From NCBI RefSeq assembly GCF_000014265.1, contig NC_008312.1:2760001-2792000 (forward strand): a DNA stretch of 32,000 nt, read 5' to 3'. The stretch's first letter is position 1. Each line of letters begins with the position of its first letter. Positions 5,564 through 25,003 of the stretch are shown here, piece after piece. Below the pieces are notes generated by a model that was not told the origin of the DNA, made no database searches, and was given only the letters and a program-made list of their open reading frames with translations. The position numbers were made by a program, and so were the translations under genes. Source of the DNA: Trichodesmium erythraeum IMS101. Lineage in GTDB: Bacteria; Cyanobacteriota; Cyanobacteriia; Cyanobacteriales; Microcoleaceae.

Positions 5564-6694
5564 TCAGCCCTTGAGGTTATTAAGTTCTTCTTTTATCCAA
5601 TCTTGATTAAATATCCTTTTATAGATCTTATTAAATACTTCTAAGCGCCCATCTTTTTTCACAACTAATCCTGACAATGTCAATTTTTGGTAAACATAAT
5701 CATCTTTTGACTCAATACTGCCTTCATTTAATATCCTTTCATATAAATTTAATAAAAGGTGTACTTGCTGTTCTTCTCTCAGACGGTTTCTAATAGTTCT
5801 TAAATGTTCAGGATCGTCTTTTTCTTCACTTAATCCATTTTCAATTATTTTTTCTTGTACTAAATTATCAAGTTTTATTTTTTCTCTTTTTTCTAGAGAA
5901 AAATTCAAACCAGATTTTGCCACTAACTCACATACTTTTTGTGTTAAAAAAGGCTGTCCACTAGTCCAATCAAGAATCCATTGTATAACTAACTCTGGTT
6001 CAAAAGCAACATTTTTTAATCCTGCTGCTAAATTAGAACATTCATGACTTTTAAAACCTTCTAATTTAATAGTTTTACACTGAATACTAAAAAGACTATT
6101 ACCATAATTTTTAATTAAATCAGATGGTGTAGCAACTCCTAATAAACAAAAAGTAAGCCTTCTGTCTTCTTGTCTATTAGAATAAATTTTGTATTCAGAA
6201 TAGCCTCGAATTAAGTCAAAAAAGTTATCTCTCCAAGTGAACTTAAACAACTCATCAATTTCATCAACAAAAATTATAATTTTTATTCTTTTATTAGATG
6301 ACAAAACTTTTTTGAAAAATTCTGTTAAATCATTACATCCAATTTCTCTGTTTTGAGCAATAGCTATATAATTTCTAATATCAAGAGTTTTGTCTATGTT
6401 AGTCTCTAAACATTTATGACCTATCTTTCTCATAAGAGCTTTATAAAAATTTGATTCATCTTTAGGTTGCTCTTGAAGACTATAGTCAATACATAAAATA
6501 TCTTTGTTTTCTTTCAATTTTTCTTTAATATTAACTATTAGAGAACTTTTTCCCATTTGTCTAGAGTTAAATACATAAGAAAATCGACCATTTTTTAATG
6601 ATTTTAGTAAATCTTCATCAGCTTTTCTAGATATATAAACCTCTCGCTTGTTAAAAGGAATAGTTCCACCAATGTGATAGAAATTTTCTGTCAT
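5564..6694 (-). CDS. AAA-like domain ATPase (Pfam AAA_35-type, STAND-like), stand-alone
   Basis: 376 aa. The family-typical N-terminus is YHIGGTIPFNKREVYISRKADEDLLKSLKNGRFSYVFNSRQMGKSSL (Walker A GKS). Walker B is IIIFVDEIDEL. Other blocks are LLGVATPSDL and SGQPFLTQK, and the C-terminal block is LTLSGLVVKKDGRLEVFNKIYKRIFNQDWI. Confidence 0.8.
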   Translation of the reverse strand: MTENFYHIGGTIPFNKREVYISRKADEDLLKSLKNGRFSYVFNSRQMGKSSLIVNIKEKLKENKDILCIDYSLQEQPKDESNFYKALMRKIGHKCLETNIDKTLDIRNYIAIAQNREIGCNDLTEFFKKVLSSNKRIKIIIFVDEIDELFKFTWRDNFFDLIRGYSEYKIYSNRQEDRRLTFCLLGVATPSDLIKNYGNSLFSIQCKTIKLEGFKSHECSNLAAGLKNVAFEPELVIQWILDWTSGQPFLTQKVCELVAKSGLNFSLEKREKIKLDNLVQEKIIENGLSEEKDDPEHLRTIRNRLREEQQVHLLLNLYERILNEGSIESKDDYVYQKLTLSGLVVKKDGRLEVFNKIYKRIFNQDWIKEELNNLKG

Positions 6695-7704: not shown

Positions 7705-9240
7705 CTATTGCAAAATACTAACAAAATAATCACGATATAAACGACAACGAGGTTTAACCTTGTTATTATTCTGAATAATTAAACCTGCATTCTGTAAATG
7801 AAAATTTGACATTGGCGAATCTAACTTAACATAATCTTGACTATTAACTATTTTTCTTAAGTCATCTGTTAATTTAGCATCATTAACAATGTTGTAAAGT
7901 TGCATCAAATAATCTTTATAAATGCTCTCATTTGTAGTTGCTTTTGCTAAGATATTATCTAAAGATTTTCCTTCAATTGCGACATGATACAAAGTTAGTC
8001 TTACTAAATATGGATGTCCTCCGATAAAAGACATTAACTTTTCAAGTTGTTTAACTCCCCAGTCTAATTGATGCTTATCTGATAATTCCTTAATTTCTTG
8101 ATAACTAAAATCACCTAAATTCCAACCTTCTCCTAAATTAAATAAAGGAGAGCTATTAATATTTGACTTGGGATAATTAGATGTTGAATAAATTAAAATT
8201 AATACCAAATTTATCCACTTATGATCATTTTTGGCTTTGTTATCATGCCAACATCGTAACATGCTCGCAAATTCATTAAAATTGGAATATTCAAATATTT
8301 TATGGAAATTATCAAAGCTCAAAAAAATAGGCTGATTAATCTCAGACAATATGTGTTTTTCAACAAAGAACGTACAATCATAAACACTTTCTATGGCTTT
8401 TCCCCATTCTTTAAGTATCTCTTCTGCATTCAAACCTAACTGTTGACAAAGTTCACGACAAAACCAATCATAAGTTTCAAATTTTTCTTTTTGGAAAGAA
8501 CTAAAATGTTCTGCTAAATCAATATCAACTACTTTAGCCTTATTATTTGTAACTAATTTATTATTTAATAGCCTATTCTTGAAAGATGTTTTACCCCTCA
8601 AATGAGGACCTTTAATCCGAATTAATATAGCTTCCTTTCCTGCATTTTCAATCTTACTCAAACATTGATTTTCTAAATAACAATTTTGGTTATAATATCG
8701 ATATTGATAGTAGGGAGAATAAGTTGGAATAGAACCTCCTGGGTAGGGAATACGCCCTAATAATTCAAACCTGGCTCTAGCTGCAGAAGAAATCCTATAT
8801 TGCTTATATTCAACGAAATATTTCATGACAATGAATAAATCTTCTTCTATATTTCTTGTGCTTTTAACCCTAAATTTATCACATATAGCTCGTAAATGCT
8901 TACTAAGTAAAGCTTTGCTTTTACCAGATGAAGATTTTCGGAAATAATATAAATCTTCCACCTCTAATTTGAGTTTTTTGAGCTTTTTAATTTGATTATC
9001 ATTTTTGTCTTTTTGAGCTTTTATTTTATCAATTTTTATATTGATCTGTTCGACTATATCTTTAGGGTTATTATACTTATATACATTGAGATATTCATAT
9101 ACATTTAAATTGAACCAAACTGTTTCATCTGTTCTGATCTCCTCATTTGTTTTACCATCTAATATTCTATTTAAAATTCTTTTGAGAATAGGAGTTAACT
9201 CTTCCTGTTCAATGCGTTCAAACTGGTCCCTGCTTAACAT
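7705..9240 (-). CDS. AAA-like domain ATPase (AAA_35-type) with about 170-aa N-terminal extension, possibly HTH
   Basis: 511 aa. The core is RIPYPGGSIPTYSPYYQYR...IRIKGPHLRGKTSF, which gives Walker A GxxxxGKT. The Walker-B-like block is IFLSFDNF. Other blocks are GGHPYLVRLTLYH and the C-terminal LQNAGLIIQNNNKVKPRCRLYRDYF. It is a paralogue of 5564..6694. The N-terminal pieces LTPILKRILNRILDGKTNEEI and KALLSKHLRAICDKFRV resemble the two halves of a LuxR-type HTH, separated by a Lys-rich coiled-coil-like insert. Confidence 0.7.
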   Translation of the reverse strand: MLSRDQFERIEQEELTPILKRILNRILDGKTNEEIRTDETVWFNLNVYEYLNVYKYNNPKDIVEQINIKIDKIKAQKDKNDNQIKKLKKLKLEVEDLYYFRKSSSGKSKALLSKHLRAICDKFRVKSTRNIEEDLFIVMKYFVEYKQYRISSAARARFELLGRIPYPGGSIPTYSPYYQYRYYNQNCYLENQCLSKIENAGKEAILIRIKGPHLRGKTSFKNRLLNNKLVTNNKAKVVDIDLAEHFSSFQKEKFETYDWFCRELCQQLGLNAEEILKEWGKAIESVYDCTFFVEKHILSEINQPIFLSFDNFHKIFEYSNFNEFASMLRCWHDNKAKNDHKWINLVLILIYSTSNYPKSNINSSPLFNLGEGWNLGDFSYQEIKELSDKHQLDWGVKQLEKLMSFIGGHPYLVRLTLYHVAIEGKSLDNILAKATTNESIYKDYLMQLYNIVNDAKLTDDLRKIVNSQDYVKLDSPMSNFHLQNAGLIIQNNNKVKPRCRLYRDYFVSILQ

Positions 9241-14766: not shown

Positions 14767-14778
14767 TAGGATTAATAT

Positions 14779-14800
14779 CAAGATTTTCATCTTGCTTTTT
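14779..14800 (+). terminator. weak intrinsic terminator after fabH
   Basis: CAAGAT tttc ATCTTG (14779-14794) followed by cTTTTT. The stem is AT-rich, so this is a tentative call. Confidence 0.35.
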
Positions 14801-15239
14801 ACTTTATTCAAAATTTATACCAAAAAAATTTCTCTGAAATATCGTCCATAAGTGGGCGAATTTTTTGTTTTTTTTTCAATAAATATGTAATAGTAAATGT
14901 TAATAGTGTAAAACTAAAATTATCAAGACAAAATTTTAAGTATGGCATATATTAAACACCAGGAAAAAAATACTGAAAGCACAAAAGAAGGGCATTTTTG
15001 TGTCTGTATTATTGAGAATAATAGTCTAGTAAAGAAAGTGAAAAAAATAAGTTAGGAGAAAAAAATCAACTAATTTTGAAGGATAAAAGCTTTTTATTTC
15101 TCAAGCTAAAGAGAATGAATAAAAAGAATGGTTATCAAAAGTTTCAGTTGTATGATTGCAGCAATATTTGAGAGATTTAAACCAAGTCGATCAAAATTTA
15201 TTGACTTTGTACGGGCTCCCTTTTTTAAGGTCCTTGGGT

Positions 15240-15790
15240 AAGGGAAAAAGTAGACATATTTTAAATCCAAAACTCACGCCCCAGGAAATCACCGGCTAAC
15301 TTCTAGTTTAGTTTACTTACCAGAGTATTTAAGTATATCAAGAAAAACCATATTTAGCAAAGATTGGAAAGTTTTAGATGTTTGGGTATTGACCATTCTT
15401 CAGTAACAGTAATTAAAAATTCAGCTAACAGATATTTTTTGAATTTTGTAGTAGAAATACAGTCAGAAACTTTATCTAAAAATGATAATTCAATTGGAAT
15501 AAATTTAGGACTTAAAACTTTTGCAAGAGTAGGAAGTTTGATAAAAAGCTAGACCTCTCAAGCACAAGAATAGGAATGTTTAAACTCTGGTGGCTAACAG
15601 CAATGGTCGTGGAAAATACAGTAATAAAAATATTAATTGTTCCTTGGGCAAAAGGAGATAAAAAAACGGAGGTGGAGGTAAAGGTAACTCACCCTCACCA
15701 AGAATCTGTGAAACTTCAACCTACATAGGAGCTACGACTTTGTCGTTTCTGTGCGCTGGCGCAGCCGAGGAGGATCTCAACTAATTCCTA
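15240..15790 (+). pseudogene. collapsed TnpB (IS200/IS605 OrfB-family) relic
   Basis: Fragments lie in different frames. HILNPKLTPQEIT resembles the TnpB N-terminus (rlyPt.eQ). SSVTVIKNSANRYFLNFVVEIQSE...SIGINLGLKTFA (15364-15552) matches the block leading into the RuvC-I GIDLG motif. TSQ..ECLNSGG (about 15553-15597) resembles the SSQ.C..CG zinc-finger region. Most of the roughly 400-aa protein is missing, and no TnpA or intact ends were seen. Confidence 0.5.
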
Positions 15791-15869
15791 AAAACATGAA
15801 CATAATTATTTAGTTAAGTAATACTAGAAGAGCTAAAAAGTTAATCATTGAAAATTTGTATAAAACCCT

Positions 15870-16505
15870 GTGACTAGAAACCGTGAACCACTTAAGAATT
15901 TGCTTCTTTATCGCTTATTAAAATGGTCAGTAATAGTTCCTATACTGCATTTTTATTTTCGCAATAATATTTATGGTGCTGAAAATGTTCCACAACAAGG
16001 ACCTTTACTCATAGTTAGTAACCATGCTAGCGATCTAGACCCCCCAATTTTATCTGTTTGTGTCAGAAGACCTGTTGCTTATATGGCAAAAGAGGAATTA
16101 TTTAATATACCTATTTTGAAGGAGGTAATTACTTTATATGGTGCTTATCCTGTAAAAAGGGGAGCGGCAGATAGAAGTGCTATTCGTGCTGCTATGAATA
16201 GTTTAGCAGAGGGATGGGCTGCGGGTATCTTTCTACAGGGAACTAGAACTCCTGATGGTAAAATAACAGAACCAAAGTTGGGCGCTGCTTTAATTGCTGC
16301 AAAGGCAAAAGTACCATTGTTACCAGTTTGTGTTTGGGGTACTCATGCAGTGAAACGTCAAGGTCTAATAGCTAATGCTGTACCAGTAACTGTCAGGATA
16401 GCAGAGGTGATACCTCCTCCTGAGTCAACTAAAAAAGAAGAATTAGAACGGGTTAGTCTCAAGTGTGCGGATATAATTAACAAAATGCATGATTTGGGAC
16501 GTTAA
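15870..16505 (+). CDS. plsC: 1-acyl-sn-glycerol-3-phosphate acyltransferase
   Basis: 211 aa with a GTG start. Acyltransferase motif I is NHASDLD, and motifs II-III are YMAKEELF and FLQGTRTPDG. Confidence 0.88.
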   Translation: MTRNREPLKNLLLYRLLKWSVIVPILHFYFRNNIYGAENVPQQGPLLIVSNHASDLDPPILSVCVRRPVAYMAKEELFNIPILKEVITLYGAYPVKRGAADRSAIRAAMNSLAEGWAAGIFLQGTRTPDGKITEPKLGAALIAAKAKVPLLPVCVWGTHAVKRQGLIANAVPVTVRIAEVIPPPESTKKEELERVSLKCADIINKMHDLGR

Positions 16506-16525
16506 TAAATTTAATTACAAAAAAA

Positions 16526-16834
16526 ATGCAAGATATTAAAAAACAATTAGCTGAAAATTTGGATGTAGCTGAATGGAACTGGTTAGTACCTCATGTTAAA
16601 CGTGATTCTGTGGTAATTATAGACCAAAAATTGGATTTGCTAGATGTGGGAGTGGCGATCGCTTCTGATCATAAGTCTTCTGTAGAAAATTGGATCAGCC
16701 AAGAACTTATTTATAAGCCAACAACAGAACAGTTATCGACGTGGAATAGCAATGATACTAAAAAGTTTAATGCTTTGATAGTACAACCTTTTGTTTTAGT
16801 CCAAGAATATGAGGAAACTCAAGAGGAAAACTAA
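16526..16834 (+). CDS. conserved small protein, DUF2288-like
   Basis: 102 aa. The blocks AEWNWLVPHVKRDSVVIID..LDLLDVGVAIASD, VENWI and FNALIVQPFVLVQE match my memory of DUF2288. Its TAA stop (16832-16834) overlaps the TAG stop (16831-16833, minus strand) of the convergent gene. Confidence 0.6.
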   Translation: MQDIKKQLAENLDVAEWNWLVPHVKRDSVVIIDQKLDLLDVGVAIASDHKSSVENWISQELIYKPTTEQLSTWNSNDTKKFNALIVQPFVLVQEYEETQEEN

Positions 16835-17406
16835 TGGAGAAGGTTGGCTCCTGTATAACCAGTAGTTAACCAAAGAATTCCTCTAATTCCATCTCGAATT
16901 GCTTTTTTTATGGGCTCGGGGGATCGCCCGGAGGGAACTGGTAGGGGCTTAAAAGCAATACCCCTACTACTCAAAACAATTTTGCCGATAACTATAGCGC
17001 GACGCATATGGTCATCGGAGGTAACTAAATAAACACTTGTAATACCTTGAGATTTTAGTTTATCTACTGTTGTTGTGAAATTAGTGACGGTATCTACGGC
17101 GTCATAGTCTAAATGTAAACGGGTTTGTGATATGCCAGCTTGGGAAAATAACCACTCTGCGTATTCTGGGTTACTGCCAGAAGATACCCAAATATCTAAG
17201 TTAGGATGTTGGCGGGCAAATTCGGCGGCAAATGCTTCTCTTTCTATGGCTCCACCAAGTACTAATAATGCTTGAGGAGGTTTAATGGTACCACTAATTT
17301 GTTGGTAACTAATCCAAAGAGTAGCTAAAAGTCCTAATAAAAACCACGAAATTAGAGAAATTTTTAATCTATGTAATTTCGTATTGGAAGTTACCCTCAA
17401 AACCAT
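16831..17406 (-). CDS. DUF218 / YdcF-family protein
   Basis: 191 aa. One N-terminal TM segment, then ALLVLGGAIEREAFAAEF...IWVSSGSNPEY...DAVDTVTNF...VYLVTSDDHMRRA, typical of the DUF218 (ElyC/YdcF/SanA) fold. Confidence 0.8.
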   Translation of the reverse strand: MVLRVTSNTKLHRLKISLISWFLLGLLATLWISYQQISGTIKPPQALLVLGGAIEREAFAAEFARQHPNLDIWVSSGSNPEYAEWLFSQAGISQTRLHLDYDAVDTVTNFTTTVDKLKSQGITSVYLVTSDDHMRRAIVIGKIVLSSRGIAFKPLPVPSGRSPEPIKKAIRDGIRGILWLTTGYTGANLLH

Positions 17407-17982
17407 ATGTTTTCAAATCAAAAACCACCTGTAGTTTTACAGATGGAAATAGCTTCAATATCAATATTCAAAAAGTACTATCTACCATCCGGAGTTAGAA
17501 GTGGGGAAGTAGGGAAATAGTGAGCAACATTCTATCAAAATCCCTACAGATGGAGACTTTCCATGGAACTGTCTGAGGTTGGAAGTGAGAATTATAGAGA
17601 GGGTAGTCGAATATATTTCTGCCTTGATTTTTTTGCATATTTATAGGTATAAAAAAACGACTTGAGTCAATATCAACTTATTTTTTGAGGTTTATTCAGT
17701 CAGCCTCTGATTTTTGGAGGAAAACTATGTTTTATAAATATCTTTCTTCAGATAAGACTTGACAAAAAATATAAATTGTGCATTTGGTGTTATATTAATT
17801 ATATGATTGTTTTTCTACAGTAAATTTATTTCAAAATTGGTTTTTTTCTGCCAGGCCTAATTCTTTGCTCATTCTCTGTCCCTCCCGCCCGTTTCCAGAT
17901 CCCTCTATTCAGAACAAGCCTTTAGGAGTCCCAGGGATAGGAAGATAGGGAGGTTGAGTTTTGACTTTTGAATTTTGATTTA

Positions 17983-18301
17983 CGGGACTGGCGCGATTCG
18001 AACGCGCGACCTAGCGCTTCAGATTTGTGTGAGTTTCCCCACTCTCTGGACTATCCCTTCACCATAGCTTTTATAGCTTTAGGTGGTGGCCTAACGCTTC
18101 AGGAGAATTATCATTACTCCTTACAACTCTAGTCTCTGCACCTTCTTTACCTCATTAGGGGTAAAGCTTGGCTCAAGATTACCTTATCTTTGTAAATGAC
18201 TTAGGCTTCCTTGAGTTTGACCACATTCACTCATGGAGTTTCCTCACATGGTGCCCGATACTTCAGGAGGCGCTTGCTCTATCCATCTGAGCCACAGCCC
18301 C
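17983..18301 (-). tRNA. tRNA-Arg(CCU) interrupted by a group I intron (exons 18301..18265 and 18019..17983)
   Basis: Joined exons give a perfect 74-nt cloverleaf:
- acceptor stem GGGGCTG/CAGTCCC with one G-T pair
- D arm GCTC-AGATGGATA-GAGC
- anticodon stem AGCGC/GCGCT with loop CT-CCT-AA
- variable loop AGGTC
- T arm GCGCG-TTCGAAT-CGCGC
- discriminator G, no encoded CCA
Exon 1 ends in U36 and the intervening sequence ends in G, as group I splicing requires. Confidence 0.88.
18020..18264 (-). ncRNA. group I intron (tRNA-type, IC3-like), 245 nt
   Basis: In RNA sense the intron reads GAAGTATCGGGCACCATGTGAGGAAACTCCATG..., with these elements:
- P2 hairpin with a GAAA loop
- P4 pairing CTCAAG/CTTGAG (the P and Q elements)
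- R element GCAGAGACTAGA and S element AAGGGATAGTCC, forming P7 (GACTA/TAGTC)
- P3 pairing GTGGTC/GGCCAC
- P9 hairpin GAGT-GGGGAA-ACTC
- terminal G
Length and motif order match bacterial pre-tRNA introns as I remember them. Confidence 0.85.
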
Positions 18302-18789
18302 ATTGTAAAGCTATAGAAATCTATTAACTTTCAATATACAAAATAAAGATTAGCAGTTAAAATTGCTTTCTTATTTATTTATAATAAAATCTAGTTATAA
18401 AATTTGTTGTAATTTTAACATTAACTTAATTAACTACTTATATATCTGTATTTGCCTTTCAATAACTAACTATTGGACTGGGCTTCAGTTAACTTCTGAT
18501 GTCTTAAATTAACAACTAATTTTATTTGTGCGTAATATCACTTAAAAAATAAAACGCTTGATAACTATAGCATGAATTTTGTGGGTTTGTCTATTATTAT
18601 TAAAGTTTTTTTTCCCAAAAATGATTATTCTTTGATTCAGTCAATATTCTAGACTGGTTTCTGAATGACTAATTAATAATTTTTGGCCTGCTTGACTAAA
18701 AAATAAGGTCTCAAAATTGCTCTTTCAAAGTTCGGGGGAAAAAAATAAATTTCAGTATTTGGCTGCAGACTTCAGCTAGAGGTACTTAC

Positions 18790-18810
18790 TAACTGTTAAC
18801 TGATACTAAA
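18790..18810 (+). repeat. heptamer tract in the leader of the STAND gene
   Basis: TAACTGT TAACTGA TACTAAA, ending 15 nt before the ATG at 18826. Confidence 0.7.
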
Positions 18811-18825
18811 ATAACAAAACATTAT

Positions 18826-21759
18826 ATGCTCGGTTTCTTTTTGGTATTTGACTGCAAAAATTATCCTCCTCAAGGGGATGTTGTTTTTGTTCATGGTTTG
18901 GCTGGTCATCCTTGGGGTACATGGCATCCTCAAAATAAAAAGGATAAAGAAGATGTTGACTTTTTGCTGTGTTGGTTGGGTGAAGAACTACAAGCACATG
19001 GAATAGATGTTAATGTCTGGAGTTTTGGATATGATGCTCCTGGTTTTCAATATTTTGGTCAGGGAATGCCGCGTTTTGATCTGGCTAGTAATTTACTGGA
19101 GTATCTTCAGGTTTATGATATTGGCAAGACATCCACTAGTTTCCCCAAACGCCCATTGATATTTGTAACTCACAGTTTGGGTGGTTTGGTGGTGAAGGAG
19201 GTAATTCGTACAGCTCAAAGTTTTCCTGAGTATCTAGCTATTGTTAAACAGGTTAAAGGAATTGTATTTTTGTCTACTCCACACACGGGAACTCATTTGG
19301 CTAATTTAATTGATCACGTCGGTTTTTTGACTAGACCTACAGTGAATGTTGAAGAGTTAAAAGAACATTCCCCTCAACTGCGAGATCTTAATGAATGGTA
19401 TCGACAAAATGTTGGCAAGTTGGAAATTAAAACTAAGGTTTTTTATGAAACAAAGTCTCTGAATGGGGTTTTGGTTGTGAATGAGGATAGCGCTAACCCT
19501 GGTATTCACGATGTTAAACCTATTGCTGTTTCAGCAGAAGACCACAACTCTATTGCTAAACCTGGAAAAAATGATTTGGTTTATCTTTCGGTGAGAAAGT
19601 TTTGTCAAGATATTTTTGCTTTAGAGGAAAGCACTTCTTCTCAATATCTTCACCAAAAATACTATATTCCTGGGGAGGCTAGCTTAGAGAATAAAGTTTT
19701 TGTAGGTAGGGAAAAAGAATTAGCTGATGTCGACAAGTTACTCAAAAATTATCAGCGGGTTTCTATTGTTTCTGTTTCTGGAATGGGTGGTGTTGGTAAA
19801 ACAGAACTTTGCCGCCGATATGCTTATGCTCATAAGTCTGCTTACCCTGGAGGTATTTGTTGGTTGGAAGCGCCGACAGAAAATGCAGGTATTCAGATAC
19901 TTAGGTTTGCTCAGAATAATTTCCAGCTTGTTTTCTCTTCAGATCAAGATTTACCGGAAAGGTTGCGCTACTGTTGGCAAAAGTGGTCTGAGGGGAATAC
20001 TTTGCTGATCTATAATGATGTAACTGACTACAATACTCAGGCCAAGCCTTTTTTACCTCCGGACTTGTCTCGGTTTCGGGTGTTGCTGACCACTCGTAAA
20101 AGTTTTGGCTCGGCATTTCCGGAGTTGCGTCTCGATGTGTTAAAGCCTTTGGCGGGGATGAAGTTGTTAAGGTCTATTTTGGGTAGAAAGAGACTTTTGC
20201 TAGAACCTAGGAAGGCTAGAGAACTGCTGATTTTTTTGGGTTATTTACCTTTGGGAATTGAATTGGTGGGGCGATATTTGGATGAGTATTGGCAGAGTTT
20301 GAATAGGGATGGTTTGGCTTTGACAAAAATGCTTAAGCGTTTAGAAAGAAAGAGTCTGGAACATCAGGCTATGTCATCTAATGAGTTAATTAATTATCCT
20401 TATGGTGTGGCGGAGGCGATCGCTTTGAGTTGGGAGATGTTGGATGAAAATACTCAGGAAATTGGGTTGAAGTTAGGTTTATATGCTTTGGCACCTATTC
20501 GTTTGTGGTGGGATGGGATAGAAGATGATGAAGAGTTGGAAGGTTGGGAAATTGCTCTTGGGAATTTGGAAAATCTGCATTTACTGAAGAGTGTTGAGCC
20601 TGGTGTTTATATTTTGCATTCTCTAGTGCGAGAGTTTTTGCAGATGAAGTTGAAAGAATATCCAAGGGCAGATGAGTTAAAGCGGGGTATTTGTCAGGTA
20701 GTGGCAGAGGCGGCTAGGAATATTCCTGATAACATTACAGTGGAGCAAGTTAAGGAAGTTGAGGTTGATATTCCTCATATTACGGAAGTGGCGGCAGTTT
20801 TGACTGAGTATTTGAGTGATGATGATTTGATTTCTCCTTTTAATGGACTAGGTCGGTTCTATCTAGGTCAAGCATTGTACTCACAGGCACAACTTTGGTT
20901 AGAGACAGGTAAAGAAATAGCAGAAAAACGGCTAGACAAAGATAATGCTGACATTGGGAATATCTACAACAGTCTGGCTTTATTATATAAGTCTCAAGGA
21001 AAATACGAAGCTGCAGAACCTTTGTACCTACAAGCTATTGAAACCGCAAAAATAGCCCTCCCTGAAAATCATCCATCTATTGCCACAGGCCTCAACAACC
21101 TGGCAAATTTATATTATTCTCAAGGAAAATACGAAGCAGCAGAACCATTGTACCTACAAGCTCTTGAAATCAAAAAAATAGCCCTCCCTGAAAATCATCC
21201 ACAACGTGCCAGCGGCCTCAACAACCTGGCAGGTTTATATTATTCTCAAGGAAAATACGAAGCAGCAGAACCATTGTACCTACAAGCTCTTGAAATCGAC
21301 AAAATAGCCCTCCCTGAAAATCATCCACAGTTTGCCACTCACCTCAACAACCTGGCAAAATTATATAGATCTCAAGGAAAATACGAAGCTGCAGAACCAT
21401 TGTACCTACAAGCTCTTGAAATCGACAAAATAGCCCTCCCTGAAAATCATCCACAGTTTGCCACTCACCTCAACAACCTGGCAAAATTATATAGATCTCA
21501 AGGAAAATACGAAGCTGCAGAACCATTGTACCTACAAGCTCTTGAAATCAACAAAATAGCCCTCCCTGAAAATCATCCAGATATTGCCACTGACCTCAAC
21601 AACCTGGCTTTATTATATGAGTCTCAGGGAAAATACGAAGCTGCAGAACCTTTGTACCTACAAGCACTGAAGATATTAAAACAATCATTAGGAGAAGAAC
21701 ATCCTAATACTCAAACAGTTCAGAAAAACTATCAAAATTTCTTAAATGAGAAAAAATGA
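18826..21759 (+). CDS. NLR-architecture STAND protein: N-terminal lipase-like alpha/beta-hydrolase, NB-ARC ATPase, C-terminal TPR array
   Basis: 977 aa, in three parts:
- Hydrolase: VVFVHGLAGHPWGTW, nucleophile elbow FVTHSLGGLVVKE (GxSxG-type), and candidate Asp/His in VVNEDSA and AEDHNSIAKP.
- NB-ARC: P-loop GMGGVGKTEL (nt 19781-19810), kinase-2 LLIYNDV, RVLLTTR, and GLPL-like GYLPLGIELVG.
- TPR: six 42-aa TPR_10/12-type units of the form LNNLAxLYxSQGKYEAAEPLYLQALEI. Confidence 0.9.
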   Translation: MLGFFLVFDCKNYPPQGDVVFVHGLAGHPWGTWHPQNKKDKEDVDFLLCWLGEELQAHGIDVNVWSFGYDAPGFQYFGQGMPRFDLASNLLEYLQVYDIGKTSTSFPKRPLIFVTHSLGGLVVKEVIRTAQSFPEYLAIVKQVKGIVFLSTPHTGTHLANLIDHVGFLTRPTVNVEELKEHSPQLRDLNEWYRQNVGKLEIKTKVFYETKSLNGVLVVNEDSANPGIHDVKPIAVSAEDHNSIAKPGKNDLVYLSVRKFCQDIFALEESTSSQYLHQKYYIPGEASLENKVFVGREKELADVDKLLKNYQRVSIVSVSGMGGVGKTELCRRYAYAHKSAYPGGICWLEAPTENAGIQILRFAQNNFQLVFSSDQDLPERLRYCWQKWSEGNTLLIYNDVTDYNTQAKPFLPPDLSRFRVLLTTRKSFGSAFPELRLDVLKPLAGMKLLRSILGRKRLLLEPRKARELLIFLGYLPLGIELVGRYLDEYWQSLNRDGLALTKMLKRLERKSLEHQAMSSNELINYPYGVAEAIALSWEMLDENTQEIGLKLGLYALAPIRLWWDGIEDDEELEGWEIALGNLENLHLLKSVEPGVYILHSLVREFLQMKLKEYPRADELKRGICQVVAEAARNIPDNITVEQVKEVEVDIPHITEVAAVLTEYLSDDDLISPFNGLGRFYLGQALYSQAQLWLETGKEIAEKRLDKDNADIGNIYNSLALLYKSQGKYEAAEPLYLQAIETAKIALPENHPSIATGLNNLANLYYSQGKYEAAEPLYLQALEIKKIALPENHPQRASGLNNLAGLYYSQGKYEAAEPLYLQALEIDKIALPENHPQFATHLNNLAKLYRSQGKYEAAEPLYLQALEIDKIALPENHPQFATHLNNLAKLYRSQGKYEAAEPLYLQALEINKIALPENHPDIATDLNNLALLYESQGKYEAAEPLYLQALKILKQSLGEEHPNTQTVQKNYQNFLNEKK
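20950..21705 (+). repeat. six in-frame 126-bp tandem units encoding the TPR array, including a perfect 2 x 126-bp duplication at 21271..21522
   Basis: The landmark tctcaagga recurs at 20992, 21118, 21244, 21370, 21496 and 21622, a period of 126. Segments 21271-21396 and 21397-21522 are identical base for base. Confidence 0.93.
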
Positions 21760-22523
21760 ATCAAAACTCCTTCAAATATTGAACTTGCCAAATAATTTGA
21801 TGACCCGCCTTACCTCCAGCAATAAAATTCTACCCACCCATTAAAAAGTAACCTTCACCTTAAACTTACCTAGGTTTTCTACCTACTATTTATTCAATTT
21901 CCTTAGTAGTCAAAATCAAACCTTTTTCACAACAGACAGTCAGAAAAATCTCAGGATATTAGTTGATATATCCCTGAAATTATCATCAAGTAGACGAGAA
22001 AAATGATTGCTTGTTTACAACCACCCCAAACATTTGTTTAATCATCTATATTTTTCTCACAGACACTCAAAATATTCGGGATGCAATGATCACAAACCCC
22101 ACAATTTTCAGGTATATTTGCGATCTTCCTAAATATCCCTAACAGCGCTTTTAAAATTCATGAACTACATCCCCATAACTAAAACCTCGTAAGAACTTAG
22201 GAACTTTGGATGTAGAGACGCATCAGGTCGTCCCCACCGTCCTCTACCGATATTAAAACTGCAGCAAAAAGCCAGACTTGAAAAACCCCCCCACTTTTTC
22301 AGAGAAGAAGAGCTAAAACAGTAACCCATAGATTAAATAACTGCCAGATATCACCAAATATCGGTTAAACCTTCAAAAATTAATCATGATAAAATGCTGC
22401 AAAACTCAGGAAAACTTATAGAAATTTCTGACAGAAACACTCAATATTTTCCCAAAAATAAACAATATATTTCAGCTAAATTGAGCAAAAGTCATTATTG
22501 ACTGCCAACTTGTAAACATTCAA

Positions 22524-22544
22524 CCATCAGCCATCAGCCATCAA
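22524..22544 (+). repeat. heptamer microsatellite (CCATCAG)x3
   Basis: CCATCAG CCATCAG CCATCAA read directly from the sequence. Confidence 0.85.
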
Positions 22545-22574
22545 CTAGAACAAGAAATTAGCCTCCCAGAAAAA

Positions 22575-23117
22575 TTAAAACTCCCACAGCAAAAAAATTA
22601 AATACTGACTGCAAACTTCACCCCAGTCAGGAAGATAGACACCATCAACATTAAGCACTTGTTCAATATTTTGTAGCAAACTTCCTAACCCTAGATATTT
22701 TTGCCCTCTAGGTAACATGTCTATACTTAACTTACTTACCTCTTCCTTAGCCGCCAACCTTGCAAAAAAATTAAACAAAAAAATTAAACATAAGATAAAT
22801 AGCAATATCTGCCGCGAACTTATCCCCTGGCAACCAACTTTTATCCTCTAAAACATGATCATTGAGTACAGTAAAACCTGCTTTTAACCTTAGGAAAACC
22901 TCAATAACTTCCCTTTCTTTCCCTGCCAAACCCCCAAAGCAAATTGGAGACATAAGTTCCCATCAACAGAAAGTAACCATATTTTTAACTTCAGATACCT
23001 CTTGGCAAACTATAGCTTTTTTAACTAGTCTTACCAAAAATTCCCACTCAGGAAAAAGAGAATCTAAATATGGTAAAATAGCCATAGATATCACGTACCC
23101 AAAAACCTCCATGTTTT
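22575..23117 (-). pseudogene. possible decayed gene of unknown family
   Basis: Three consecutive minus-strand open pieces. The first is MEVFGYVISMAILPYLDSLFPEWEFLVRLVKKAIVCQEVSEVKNMVTFC, which ends at an in-frame TGA. The second is the 22771..22953 ORF. The third is the 22575..22805 ORF, in a shifted frame and overlapping by 35 nt. No family recognised. Confidence 0.3.
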
Positions 23118-23582
23118 AGTAAAAGCGCTCTACCACAATAGCTTCAAGCTAAATAATTAAGTTGCTTATATTCCGCAGTAAATGGAGCTAAATTATGAGT
23201 AGTATAATAATATTATGAATTACTAAAGCGAGGAGTACTCCCCAAGCAAAAAAACCACCTTAAAAGCTAAAAAATTCTATTATTAGACATCTTTTATTGA
23301 ATATTATTCCTAATAAAATCATAAGAGCTTAGTCTTTTCATCCTATTTTTTCTCCTAGGCTTGGATACTAAAGCTCCTAGTATCAAATATTCCAACATAT
23401 TTTGGTAAAAGATTTGACTTTTTTTAAATTTTTAAGTATAGTATTACTTATGGCTATCAAATAAAAAAAGCTTAGGAAAATGGAATAAACAATTTCCGAC
23501 TTCTGCAGAATCCGAAATTTATTTCTAATCCTATGCTTTGATTTCTAGATAAGATTATTACATAATATGTGTAACAAAGTTA

Positions 23583-23636
23583 GGCGCTTTTATTTTTTGT
23601 TTAACCAAGAAAAAAGACGCCTTTATTTCTTCTTTG
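23583..23636. terminator. long imperfect hairpin with T-rich tail, about 150 nt beyond the chlP stop
   Basis: GGCGCTTTTATTTTTTG (23583-23599) pairs imperfectly with CAAGAAAAAAGACGCC (23606-23621), followed by TTTATTTCTTCTTTG on the plus strand. Its orientation and the gene it serves are unclear. Confidence 0.3.
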
Positions 23637-23782
23637 TCTATGGCCAAGAATAAAAATTCCCTGGAGATAGGGAGAAAAAAATTAGCTGTAACATCAAGCT
23701 GTTCAGGCTTTCCACCAGAGAAATTAACCAGAACAGCAAAGTCATCCCTGTAACCGGCAAAAAGCTCAGGGTCTTGAGGAAC

Positions 23783-25003
23783 TTACGGAGCTAAAGCATG
23801 ACCCCGGAGCATACTACCAATAGTTTTAGCAGTTATCTTCATTTGAATTAAAGGGTTAGCAGGAACAACAGTCTTGTACAAATAACTATCAAAAGTTAAT
23901 TTCTGCACATCCCTATCAGCGCACATTTCCACAAATGCCTCTCGAGTCGCATCAGAACGATAGAATACCCTCTGCAAAATATCCAATACTTTGTAAGTCA
24001 TGCCATATTTCTTATCCCACCGTTTCAGATAAAGCTTTAAGTCTGCTTCAGTAGGAATAATAGCACCATTGTTAGAAGCCTCAACAATAGTTTCAGCACA
24101 CATCCGAGCAGACTTAGCTGCAAAATAGATACCCTCACCAGAAGACTTAGTAACAGTACCCGCAGCATCTCCGACTAAAGCAACTCTGCCACGAACCCTA
24201 TGGGGACGAGGATGTTCAGGAATAGGATGAGCTTCTACCTTAATTATTTGGCCACCTTCGAGGCGTTTAGCTGCACGAGCTCGAATACCTGCTTGTAGCT
24301 GTTTAATTTTTGCCTGGTGAACCTTCATTGTACCAGTACCTACAGCCACGTGGTCATATTTAGGAAATACCCAAGCGTAGAAGTCTGGGGAAACATCATC
24401 CCCCACATACATTTCTGCAAGGTCTTCGTAGTATGCCATAAGATGGTCAGGGAGGCGGATACGCTCTTGGAAAGCGATCGCGTAGTTATAGTCTCCAGCA
24501 TCAATAGCTTTAGCCACACGGGAGTTTGCCCCATCTGCTCCAATAACTAAATCTACTTTTAAGGTTTTAGCCGTTCCTTGAATATCTCCTTGTGAATGGT
24601 CAGAATAATGAATAGTGTAGGGTTCTCTATCATTATTAGGAAGATCAAGTTTATAAACAGTACCATTAATGAGGTTAGCTCCTAGGGAAGCCGCCCGGTC
24701 TCTGAGGAAGCCATCTAATACTTCCCGACGGCACATACCGATATATTCATCTTCTTTTTCTATATGAATATCTACCTCAACATTGGAGGGAGATATCATT
24801 TTCATTTTTCTAACTCGGCGATCGATAATTTCTGGTGGGAGATCAAATTCACTGACCATACATAGGGGAATAGCTCCACCACAAGGCTTAGCGTTATTTA
24901 GTTTTCGCTCAAATAAATAAGTTTCAATACCTGCTTTTACTAAAGTCTCGGCAGCAGAGGAACCCGCTGGACCTGAACCTACAACAGCAACCCTTAAAGT
25001 CAA
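23783..25003 (-). CDS. chlP: geranylgeranyl diphosphate/chlorophyll reductase
   Basis: RVAVVGSGPAGSSAAETLVKAGIETYLFERKLNNAKPCGGAIPLCMVSEFDLPPEIIDRRVRKMKMISPSN is near-identical to cyanobacterial ChlP as I remember it. The longest ORF starts at a TTG at 25036. I prefer the TTG at 25001-25003, which lies 6 nt after AAGGAG and gives about 406 aa beginning (M)TLRVAVVG. Confidence 0.93.
   Translation of the reverse strand: MTLRVAVVGSGPAGSSAAETLVKAGIETYLFERKLNNAKPCGGAIPLCMVSEFDLPPEIIDRRVRKMKMISPSNVEVDIHIEKEDEYIGMCRREVLDGFLRDRAASLGANLINGTVYKLDLPNNDREPYTIHYSDHSQGDIQGTAKTLKVDLVIGADGANSRVAKAIDAGDYNYAIAFQERIRLPDHLMAYYEDLAEMYVGDDVSPDFYAWVFPKYDHVAVGTGTMKVHQAKIKQLQAGIRARAAKRLEGGQIIKVEAHPIPEHPRPHRVRGRVALVGDAAGTVTKSSGEGIYFAAKSARMCAETIVEASNNGAIIPTEADLKLYLKRWDKKYGMTYKVLDILQRVFYRSDATREAFVEMCADRDVQKLTFDSYLYKTVVPANPLIQMKITAKTIGSMLRGHALAP

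Follow-up and report, generated by a model that had tools for sequence, protein, structure and literature searches.

The gene Tery_1822 of Trichodesmium erythraeum IMS101 raises the question of what a single protein built from a lipase-like hydrolase, a nucleotide-binding oligomerization domain (NOD) module and an array of tetratricopeptide repeats (TPRs) does in a filamentous marine cyanobacterium. The gene lies in a 32,000-nucleotide stretch of contig NC_008312.1 (positions 2,760,001 to 2,792,000 of the forward strand), referred to here as the window, whose coordinates are used throughout. A preliminary description of this DNA had proposed a candidate immunity or cell-death switch of the NLR type in a filamentous cyanobacterium, and its guess at the host was correct. 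Tery_1822 encodes a cytosolic NLR-like receptor made of one chain, from the AP-ATPase/NB-ARC clade of STAND NTPases, and it is fairly probable, by analogy with characterized systems, that this protein acts as a switch in which a ligand bound by the TPRs would be signaled through the NOD to the hydrolase and bring about cell death or arrest against an invader.

The reading frame of Tery_1822 starts with ATG and is intact, and the existing annotation of its product is "NB-ARC". The chain is tripartite, with the hydrolase followed by the NOD and the TPRs (Table 1). Pfam cut-offs were 23.5 bits for NB-ARC, 26.3 for Abhydrolase_6, 20.3 for DUF676 and 24.3 for PGAP1. The NB-ARC profile matched residues 299-493 at 36.4 bits and the hydrolase was matched by Abhydrolase_6 (32.0 bits) and DUF676 (22.5 bits), all above cut-off; PGAP1 reached 21.3 bits and was sub-threshold, and some homologues of the hydrolase do pass a PGAP1-like threshold in precomputed PF07819 annotation. 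The repeats were matched by TPR_12 (E = 1.8e-85) and TPR_10 (E = 8.8e-68), and the array of kinesin-light-chain type that had been described consists of six units of 42 residues. Among the families that the preliminary description had put forward for profile searches, PGAP1 alone was not supported. The motifs quoted there were all located at definite positions and are nearly all conserved: VVFVHGLAGHPWGTW (residues 19-33), THSLGG (115-120), NEDSA (219-223) and EDHNSIAKP (238-246) in the hydrolase, and GMGGVGKT (319-326), LLIYNDV (393-399), LLTTR (420-424) and LPLGIELVG (474-482) in the NB-ARC module. Profiles, models and motif conservation fully back the effector-NOD-repeat, NLR-type STAND organization that had been read from them. 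No DNA-binding or further output domain was found in Tery_1822 by Pfam search. Two identities indicated by NCBIfam were rejected, the FxSxx-COOH system TPR protein (182 bits against a cut-off of 300) and AfsR (59 bits against a cut-off of 1430).

Table 1. Features of Tery_1822 in window coordinates, with the evidence for each (ORF, open reading frame; CDS, coding sequence; aa, amino acid residues; NBD, nucleotide-binding domain; AF2, AlphaFold2 model; TRF, Tandem Repeats Finder).
Feature	Position	Strand	Evidence
Tery_1822 CDS, hydrolase-NB-ARC-TPR, 977 aa	18826..21759	+	ORF; exact match to ABG51079.1/WP_011611454.1/Q114J5
N-terminal alpha/beta-hydrolase (serine esterase/lipase-like), aa 1-276	18826..19653	+	Pfam, PADLOC, AF2, Foldseek
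Ser117, predicted nucleophile in T-H-S-L-G-G elbow	19174..19176	+	conservation; AF2 topology
Glu208, probable catalytic acid	19447..19449	+	conservation; AF2 topology
His240, predicted catalytic histidine (D-H-N-S-I-A-K-P)	19543..19545	+	conservation; AF2 topology
NOD module (NBD, helical domain, winged helix), NB-ARC/AP-ATPase type, aa ~285-640	19678..20745	+	Pfam, PDB sequence search, AF2, Foldseek
Walker A / P-loop GMGGVGKT (K325)	19780..19803	+	40-member alignment
Walker B LLIYND (N397-D398)	20002..20019	+	40-member alignment
RNBS-B / sensor I LLTTR (R424)	20083..20097	+	40-member alignment
GLPL motif G-Y-L-P-L-G-I-E-L-V-G	20239..20271	+	40-member alignment
MHD-equivalent L-H-S (H598), winged-helix domain	20614..20622	+	40-member alignment; AfsR alignment
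TPR array, six 42-aa TPR_10/TPR_12 units + C-terminal cap, predicted sensor, aa 697-965	20914..21720	+	Pfam, TRF

The AF2 model of the hydrolase domain, built from 56 homologues (pLDDT 84.5, pTM 0.88), has the alpha/beta-hydrolase fold that had been proposed from the motifs. Foldseek returned 469 PDB matches at E <= 1e-3, the top ones all alpha/beta-hydrolases, with esterases, monoacylglycerol lipases and thioesterases among the structural matches (E ~1e-8, TM 0.5-0.6); a PDB sequence search found no closely related solved structure. In the model, Ser117 is placed between a predicted strand (residues 111-116) and a helix (119-130), a helical lid covers roughly residues 155-195, and His240 stands in the loop past predicted strand 233-235. 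Glu208 ends predicted strand 202-208, which is where the acid of the triad canonically sits.

Conservation was scored in three sets, comprising the 56 close homologues, 79 diverse genomic homologues (32-71% identity, several phyla) and 46 long multidomain members. Glu208 was present in every sequence (56/56, 79/79 and 46/46), Ser117 in 55/56, 78/79 and 46/46, and His240 in 55/56, 79/79 and 46/46. The HG oxyanion motif (H23-G24) was invariant in the close set, present in 78/78 of the diverse set and in >= 90% of the long set, and G119-G120 was invariant in the close and long sets and essentially so in the diverse one. These conserved residues span other phyla and proteins with other fusion partners. 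This conservation agrees with the nucleophile elbow and the candidate histidine named in the preliminary description. Its candidate acid, the aspartate of NEDSA (D221), was kept in just 34 of 56 close and 24 of 79 diverse homologues and was rejected on conservation in favor of Glu208. The triad is probably Ser117-His240-Glu208, given that Glu208 is invariant and sits at the canonical acid position and that D221 is poorly conserved. The invariance of the nucleophile, His, Glu and oxyanion motifs across phyla argues for catalysis, and the domain looks catalytically competent. A lipid substrate is weakly suggested by the similarity to DUF676, PGAP1-like and LCAT families (the last in one homologue), by the monoacylglycerol-lipase-like fold and by the prediction of Kaur et al. 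2021 (PMC8195603).

Motif conservation in the NOD was assessed in an alignment of 40 family members, and the four classical NB-ARC motifs listed in the preliminary description were all present. The P-loop residues G319, M320, G322, G324, K325 and T326, the sensor-I residues T422 and R424, the GLPL residues G472, L474, P475, L476, E479, L480 and V481, and H598, which pairs with the H of "FHD" in AfsR, were invariant (40/40 in each case). Walker B varies: position 397 is D in 33/40 and N in 7/40, and position 398 is D in 32/40 and N in 8/40. N397 is common to Tery_1822 and its six closest relatives, and D398 is kept in Tery_1822. By sequence, the closest solved relative of the NOD was AfsR (6e-10), followed weakly by the plant helper NLR NRC4 (0.015). 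The AF2 model of the NOD (pLDDT 87, pTM 0.80) found its best PDB fold matches by Foldseek in Apaf-1 (3j2t, 3sfz and 1z6t, E = 5e-12 to 2e-11), the highest TMq of 0.61 being that of ADP-bound Apaf-1 1z6t. Tomato NRC2 (7e-10), ZAR1, CED-4 and other plant NLRs came next, with TM-scores of 0.58 and 0.55 for the NRC2 dimer and tetramer structures, and Avs4 was a distant fold match (5e-5). Since Apaf-1 and plant NLRs match far better than Avs4, the modeled NOD is of the AP-ATPase/NB-ARC clade, outside the characterized Avs families. The structure prediction that had been suggested earlier gave an Apaf-1-like NOD behind an N-terminal domain of alpha/beta-hydrolase fold.

The repeats of the TPR array are nearly identical to one another. 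Tandem Repeats Finder reported a repeat of period 126 nt at positions 20982-21665, in 5.4 copies with 91% matches. In DNA, identity is 100% between units 4 and 5 and 85-90% among units 2-6. In units pooled from close alleles, ~30 of the 42 positions were invariant, and positions 3, 13, 14, 16, 17, 23 and 26 were hypervariable, with an i, i+3/4, i+7 spacing that would fit one face of helix A. Within IMS101, these seven codons hold 97 of the 101 pairwise non-synonymous differences among units. Their ratio of non-synonymous to synonymous variation (pN/pS) was 1.53, against 0.05 at the other 35 codons; because the codons were picked post hoc, the value of 1.53 is descriptive and is no test of positive selection. 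The pooled whole-unit pN/pS was 0.72, not above 1. High internal conservation of 42-residue TPRs in cyanobacterial NLR-like proteins has already been published (Dyrka et al. 2020, bioRxiv 10.1101/2020.01.06.895854; PMC13449251), and it has been proposed to permit rapid diversification as in fungi (Dyrka et al. 2020; Dyrka et al. 2014, PMC4986451; PMC13449251).

Members of the >= 90% identity cluster carried 4, 5, 6 or 11 units (893, 935, 977 and 1187 residues), and two of them occupy the same syntenic slot within contigs of 80 kb and 107 kb. Between IMS101 and the allele of Trichodesmium MAG_R01 (MAG, metagenome-assembled genome) at the same locus, identity was 98.5% in the upstream flank, 99.2% in the hydrolase, 98.0% in the NOD and ~89-91% in the TPRs, the most diverged part. 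The 4-unit variant (L084, ERZ529326), compared with window positions 16000-24000, is 100% identical over ~7 kb of flanks, hydrolase and NOD and is without exactly the two identical units 4 and 5. It may be a culture-derived deletion or, given its complete identity to IMS101 everywhere else, the same strain with its repeats collapsed in short-read assembly; repeat-number polymorphism was therefore not counted as firm evidence. The same variant is a caution for inferring repeat number from metagenome assemblies in general.

The company kept by the hydrolase bears on its role as an effector. An exhaustive profile search with the domain collected 16,066 representative clusters at E <= 1e-3, of which 2,182 reached E <= 1e-30; 51 of the best 150 clusters are >= 600 residues long, with the domain mostly N-terminal and sometimes C-terminal. 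Sampled at one genome per species across GTDB, it occurs in cyanobacteria, Amycolatopsis, Micromonospora, Duganella, Acidobacteriota, Planctomycetota, Chloroflexota and alpha-proteobacteria. Relatives at ~70% identity are stand-alone proteins of ~280 residues or are fused to the bacterial Death-like domains bDLD3 (P0121) and bDLD1 (P0139), to AAA_35, to GUN4 or to NB-ARC. Among the long members (n = 46), NB-ARC was found in 12, TPR_12 in 15, AAA_35 in 7 and WD40 in 3, and the hydrolase-NB-ARC-TPR architecture recurs in Moorena, Hyella and Amycolatopsis. Stand-alone hydrolase genes very often precede a large gene on the same strand at a distance of -30 to +157 bp. All 10 downstream partners tested were of sensor type and 9 had a STAND NTPase match: 3 nSTAND3, 4 NACHT (one with an FGE-sulfatase domain) and 2 NB-ARC-TPR; the tenth was a WD40 protein without an NTPase match.

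In several of these pairs the C-terminus of the hydrolase and the N-terminus of the partner carry a matching short motif, for example DNRTGGVYFAD...VVGRDQ in the hydrolase and DNRSGGAYFAD...VVGVNQ in the partner at locus L015, or IPGTVTQTGTGNVIGSGN in both proteins at L060. Such pairs fit the arrangement of BASS-type bacterial amyloid signaling. L015, L022, L026 and L060 are two-gene versions in which the hydrolase tail and the N-terminus of the neighboring protein, nSTAND3 or another partner, have a motif of 20-30 residues in common. Tery_1822 itself is of the fused all-in-one kind and not a two-component, motif- or adaptor-coupled pair. Its chassis has exchanged N-termini in turn: P0004 has a NOD-TPR portion 76% identical to that of Tery_1822 with EAD4 in place of the hydrolase, the similarity beginning at residue 277 ("QKYYIPGE"), which marks the swap boundary. 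Further NOD-TPR paralogues start with EAD4 (P0015), EAD10 (P0010) or TIR_2 (P0061). Fusions, gene pairs, N-terminal swapping and links to PADLOC models combine to make well supported, at the level of sequence comparison, the reading that the hydrolase family is a mobile effector module repeatedly put under STAND sensor control. This shuffling among STAND chassis, adaptor domains and two-gene operons lends strong comparative support to the effector role assigned to the hydrolase in the preliminary description.

Two further arrangements in the family were noted. In Moorena producens 3L (L019, 7938-11575) the hydrolase ORF stops at "...HHIDLCKPG", and the next ORF opens with the remaining hydrolase C-terminus ("...LCKPDSQNSLVYLGVKKFIEECL") and runs into NB-ARC-TPR, which looks like a frameshift-split copy of the fused architecture, either pseudogenized or mis-sequenced. 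In two Cyanobium MAGs (L066 and L082) the hydrolase is fused to a C-terminal domain of ~300 residues and is followed by a protein of 600 residues starting "MTYTA(V/I)(T/A)", which may be a different sensor system.

Among PADLOC models, the best match of the hydrolase domain was DUF626_VIII (E = 1.8e-15), the "putative serine esterase" of predicted type VIII retrons, and a Nostoc homologue also matches Lamassu LmuA. The other PADLOC matches of Tery_1822 were a generic TPR model and, weakly, mad8. Membership in Avs was rejected, as PADLOC gave no Avs match and Avs4 was a distant fold match only.

Tery_1822 belongs to a class that is already described and computationally defined, so the preliminary description implied too much novelty. 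The "NB-ARC" annotation exists, NB-ARC-TPR proteins of filamentous cyanobacteria that begin with an enzymatic domain go back in the literature to Koonin & Aravind 2002 and Leipe et al. 2004, and all-in-one alpha/beta-hydrolase-NOD-repeat proteins of bacteria were set beside motif-coupled two-gene versions by Dyrka et al. 2020 (bioRxiv 10.1101/2020.01.06.895854). Kaur et al. 2021 (PMC8195603) listed alpha/beta-hydrolases among bDLD3-linked effectors and predicted that they hydrolyze membrane lipids. With these bacterial proteins (Koonin & Aravind 2002; Leipe et al. 2004; Dyrka et al. 2020; Kaur et al. 2020/2021, PMC7159879, PMC8195603) Tery_1822 shares the tripartite build, the NOD clade, the 42-residue TPRs and the phyletic lean to filamentous cyanobacteria and actinobacteria, and fused, BASS motif-coupled and bDLD3 adaptor-coupled forms are all found for its hydrolase family. 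There is no categorical difference; in the present case the triad acid is probably an invariant Glu, and allelic variation is seen in the TPRs. Added here are the assignment of Glu208 as the acid, the breadth of STAND partners of the hydrolase, the swap boundary at residue 277 and the site-restricted variability of the TPRs, together with, more tentatively, the allelic variation in Trichodesmium.

The parallel with fungal SesB-type proteins drawn in the preliminary description is real at the level of architecture (Dyrka et al. 2014, PMC4986451). The fungal SesB-like/NB-ARC/TPR NLRs, such as Podospora anserina Pa_2_10340, likewise have a lipase-like alpha/beta-hydrolase N-terminus, an NB-ARC NOD and 42-residue TPRs that are highly conserved internally, hypervariable at certain positions and different in repeat number, and their N-terminal domains are also swapped between near-identical NOD-repeat chassis. 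They belong to another kingdom and are tied to allorecognition (PMC4986451). The likeness to SesB itself is one of architecture; the link between the hydrolases is indirect, through annotations of DUF676, PGAP1 and SERAC1 type, in that sesB-like domains are SERAC1-type lipases (PMC4986451) and some hydrolase homologues carry "SERAC1" labels in JGI annotation.

Avs proteins (Avs1-5, Avs7; Gao et al. 2022; PMC13581612) share with Tery_1822 the single-gene layout of effector, STAND NTPase and TPR-like sensor and the proposed order of ligand sensing, oligomerization, effector activation and cell death; their TPR sensors bind phage proteins, which drives oligomerization (PMC13581612). Tery_1822 differs from them in its STAND clade (Apaf-1 and plant NLRs at E ~1e-11, Avs4 at 5e-5), in its short and regular TPR units where Avs sensors are large and irregular, in its hydrolase effector where Avs carry a nuclease, SIR2, TIR or protease, and in having neither a PADLOC Avs match nor a defence-island context. 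From Apaf-1, CED-4 and plant CNL and TNL proteins, with which the NOD fold and all signature motifs are shared, it differs in a TPR sensor in place of WD40 or LRR, and in an N-terminal enzyme in place of an adaptor (CARD) or a pore-forming CC domain. An alpha/beta-hydrolase paired with a caspase has been described as a latent death effector, a zymogen licensed by proteolysis, the substrate of which was not identified (Evans et al. 2025, PMC12642450). This LcHydrolase is similar to lipases by HHpred and is, like the hydrolase proposed here, a latent alpha/beta-hydrolase death effector below a sensor; it is a separate protein activated by two proteolytic cuts, whereas the Tery_1822 hydrolase is fused to the NOD with no protease nearby.

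The mechanism proposed for the switch rests on analogy with Apaf-1, plant NLRs and bacterial Avs (PMC13581612). In the resting state the NOD would be closed, probably with ADP bound, and the hydrolase kept inactive. A protein ligand engaging the hypervariable face of the TPR solenoid would open the NOD, nucleotide exchange would lead to oligomerization, and the clustered or released N-terminal hydrolases would cleave an ester substrate, most likely a membrane lipid; in cyanobacteria the chief membrane lipids are MGDG, DGDG and SQDG. Cleavage of the substrate would kill or arrest the cell and limit the spread of the invader along the trichome or colony, as abortive infection or regulated cell death.

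Several points weigh against this reading or parts of it. No defence island surrounds Tery_1822 in the window, where the neighbors are housekeeping genes, no significant direct or inverted repeats flank it, and PADLOC gave no match to Avs or another complete defence-system model. The homologues in Moorena and on a marine metagenome contig are singletons among housekeeping genes, few loci having been examined. Activation by oligomerization is not readily explained for a normally monomeric hydrolase, and nucleotide handling may be altered by the Asn (N397) at the first acidic position of Walker B. Glu208 was assigned as the triad acid from conservation and topology alone, the lipid substrate leans on weak family similarity (DUF676, PGAP1-like, LCAT and monoacylglycerol lipase folds), and the repeat-number differences among alleles come from short-read assemblies. 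A literature search on Tery_1822 returned no paper and found no experiment on close homologues. At the few loci surveyed, homologues sat neither in a conserved housekeeping operon, the setting that the preliminary description had named as adverse, nor in a defence-gene context, and no conserved operon partner accompanied the full-length Moorena homologue or the hydrolase-bDLD3 form.

The same switch might respond to an endogenous trigger, its TPRs sensing a host protein or damage signal in stress- or development-linked regulated death (as when blooms collapse for want of Fe/P or in high light) or in conspecific non-self recognition. The gene occupies a stable chromosomal slot, syntenic in at least three Trichodesmium assemblies and away from any defence island, and autocatalytic cell death is well documented in Trichodesmium. 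Cell fusion is not known in filamentous cyanobacteria, which makes allorecognition in particular unlikely. Fungal NLRs with the same architecture and internally conserved 42-residue TPRs do act in allorecognition (PMC4986451), but hypervariable sensor positions and the swapping of N-terminal modules are arms-race signatures, and all triggers of bacterial STAND/Avs proteins found in PMC13581612 are phage proteins; on balance, an internal trigger is considered unlikely. A different proposal, that Tery_1822 is a housekeeping NTP-gated lipase or esterase for membrane-lipid remodeling linked to the adjacent plsX-fabH-plsC genes, draws on its position 2.3 kb downstream of that lipid-biosynthesis cluster, a layout kept in other Trichodesmium assemblies, and on the resemblance of the hydrolase to lipid-acting families (DUF676, PGAP1-like, and LCAT in one homologue). 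It is very improbable: the synteny is confined to the genus, the full-length Moorena and the hydrolase-bDLD3 relatives have unrelated neighbors, and a convergent DUF218 gene, a tRNA gene and 1.4 kb lie between the cluster and Tery_1822. A housekeeping enzyme would not be expected to shuffle with Death-like, EAD and TIR modules or to pair with NACHT and nSTAND3, and the hypervariability of the sensor also speaks against one.

The least probable account is that of a STAND regulator or scaffold resembling AfsR, MalT or GutR, with the hydrolase as a ligand-binding or inactive module. AfsR, a transcription regulator, is the closest solved sequence relative of the NOD, and the sub-threshold NCBIfam matches to AfsR and the FxSxx-TPR family point the same way; yet those matches are far under their cut-offs, Pfam finds no DNA-binding or other output domain, and the nucleophile, the His, the Glu and the oxyanion motif do not vary from phylum to phylum. 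A ligand-gated hydrolase switch turned against an invader is preferred to these accounts.

The surroundings of the gene were also inspected. The window includes gpsA, tatC, an S13 carboxypeptidase gene, plsX, fabH, a plsC-like acyltransferase gene and genes for DUF2288 and DUF218 proteins, as well as genes for a geranylgeranyl reductase, a DUF1499 protein, a SnoaL-like protein, a deacetylase and a periplasmic binding protein. A tRNA-Arg(CCU) gene (17983-18301, minus strand) lies 525 bp upstream of Tery_1822 and is divergent from it; it is broken after anticodon position 36 by a group I intron of 245 nt (18020-18264; Rfam RF00028, 68.7 bits). ARAGORN called this tRNA-Arg(cct) with the intron option or in the sequence spliced in silico, and at default settings it gave no tRNA in the window. 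The tRNA gene with its intron accounts for part of the 1.4-kb "empty" region upstream of Tery_1822. The idea of a mobile island was rejected, as there are no flanking repeats, the adjacent tRNA-Arg gene points away with its 3' end distal, and no NLR or hydrolase pseudogene fragments were found in the long non-coding flanks.

Two genes for AAA_35 ("AAA-like domain") proteins (5564-6694 and 7705-9240, both minus strand) lie in the part of the window lowest in GC content (27-29%). AAA_35 is the NTPase domain that is fused to the same hydrolase family in Nostoc and Dolichospermum (L007-L012), and the N-terminal region of 180 residues of the 511-residue AAA_35 protein had no Pfam or PADLOC match. 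These may be further NTPase-based conflict-system genes. In the plsX-fabH ... plsC-like cluster, a gap of 1.1 kb (14767-15869) with no ORF >62 residues stands at the expected site of fabD, and a short ORF (15364-15552) with "GINLGLK" is reminiscent of TnpB-type transposase remnants, as a candidate. Downstream of Tery_1822, positions 21760-23782 form 2 kb with no ORF >85 residues, a strongly negative GC skew (-0.32 to -0.37) and a positive AT skew. This region had no Rfam match and no similarity to NLR or hydrolase proteins, and its conservation in other Trichodesmium assemblies (L083, L084) is 94-100%; a non-coding RNA or a decayed minus-strand gene could account for it.

As an annotation finding, Tery_1822 confirms a known class and will not surprise a specialist. 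A more far-reaching version of the switch remains doubtful: that in wild Trichodesmium the Tery_1822 locus diversifies its receptor rapidly, with near-identical TPR units duplicated, lost and reshuffled, selection on ~7 ligand-facing positions and 4 to 11 units on a near-invariant hydrolase-NOD chassis, joined to a Ser-His-Glu lipase-type executioner that kills by hydrolysis of membrane lipids. If true, the locus would be a bacterial counterpart of the repeat diversification by "high internal conservation" of fungal NLRs, and membrane-lipid hydrolysis would be an effector chemistry so far undemonstrated for prokaryotic or eukaryotic NLRs.

Filamentous cyanobacteria hold very large NB-ARC-TPR repertoires, and no report of a functional test of any such protein from them was found in the literature. 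Tery_1822 is a compact and intact single-gene entry point, with defined residues for mutation (S117, E208, H240, K325, R424 and H598, the last of an MHD type in which mutations often cause auto-activation), natural two-gene and adaptor-coupled relatives for comparison, and a hypervariable sensor. Should it kill by lipid hydrolysis on ligand recognition, it would provide the first mechanism for the alpha/beta-hydrolase effector class and would connect an NLR-type sensor with regulated cell death in a bloom-forming N2 fixer of ecological importance.

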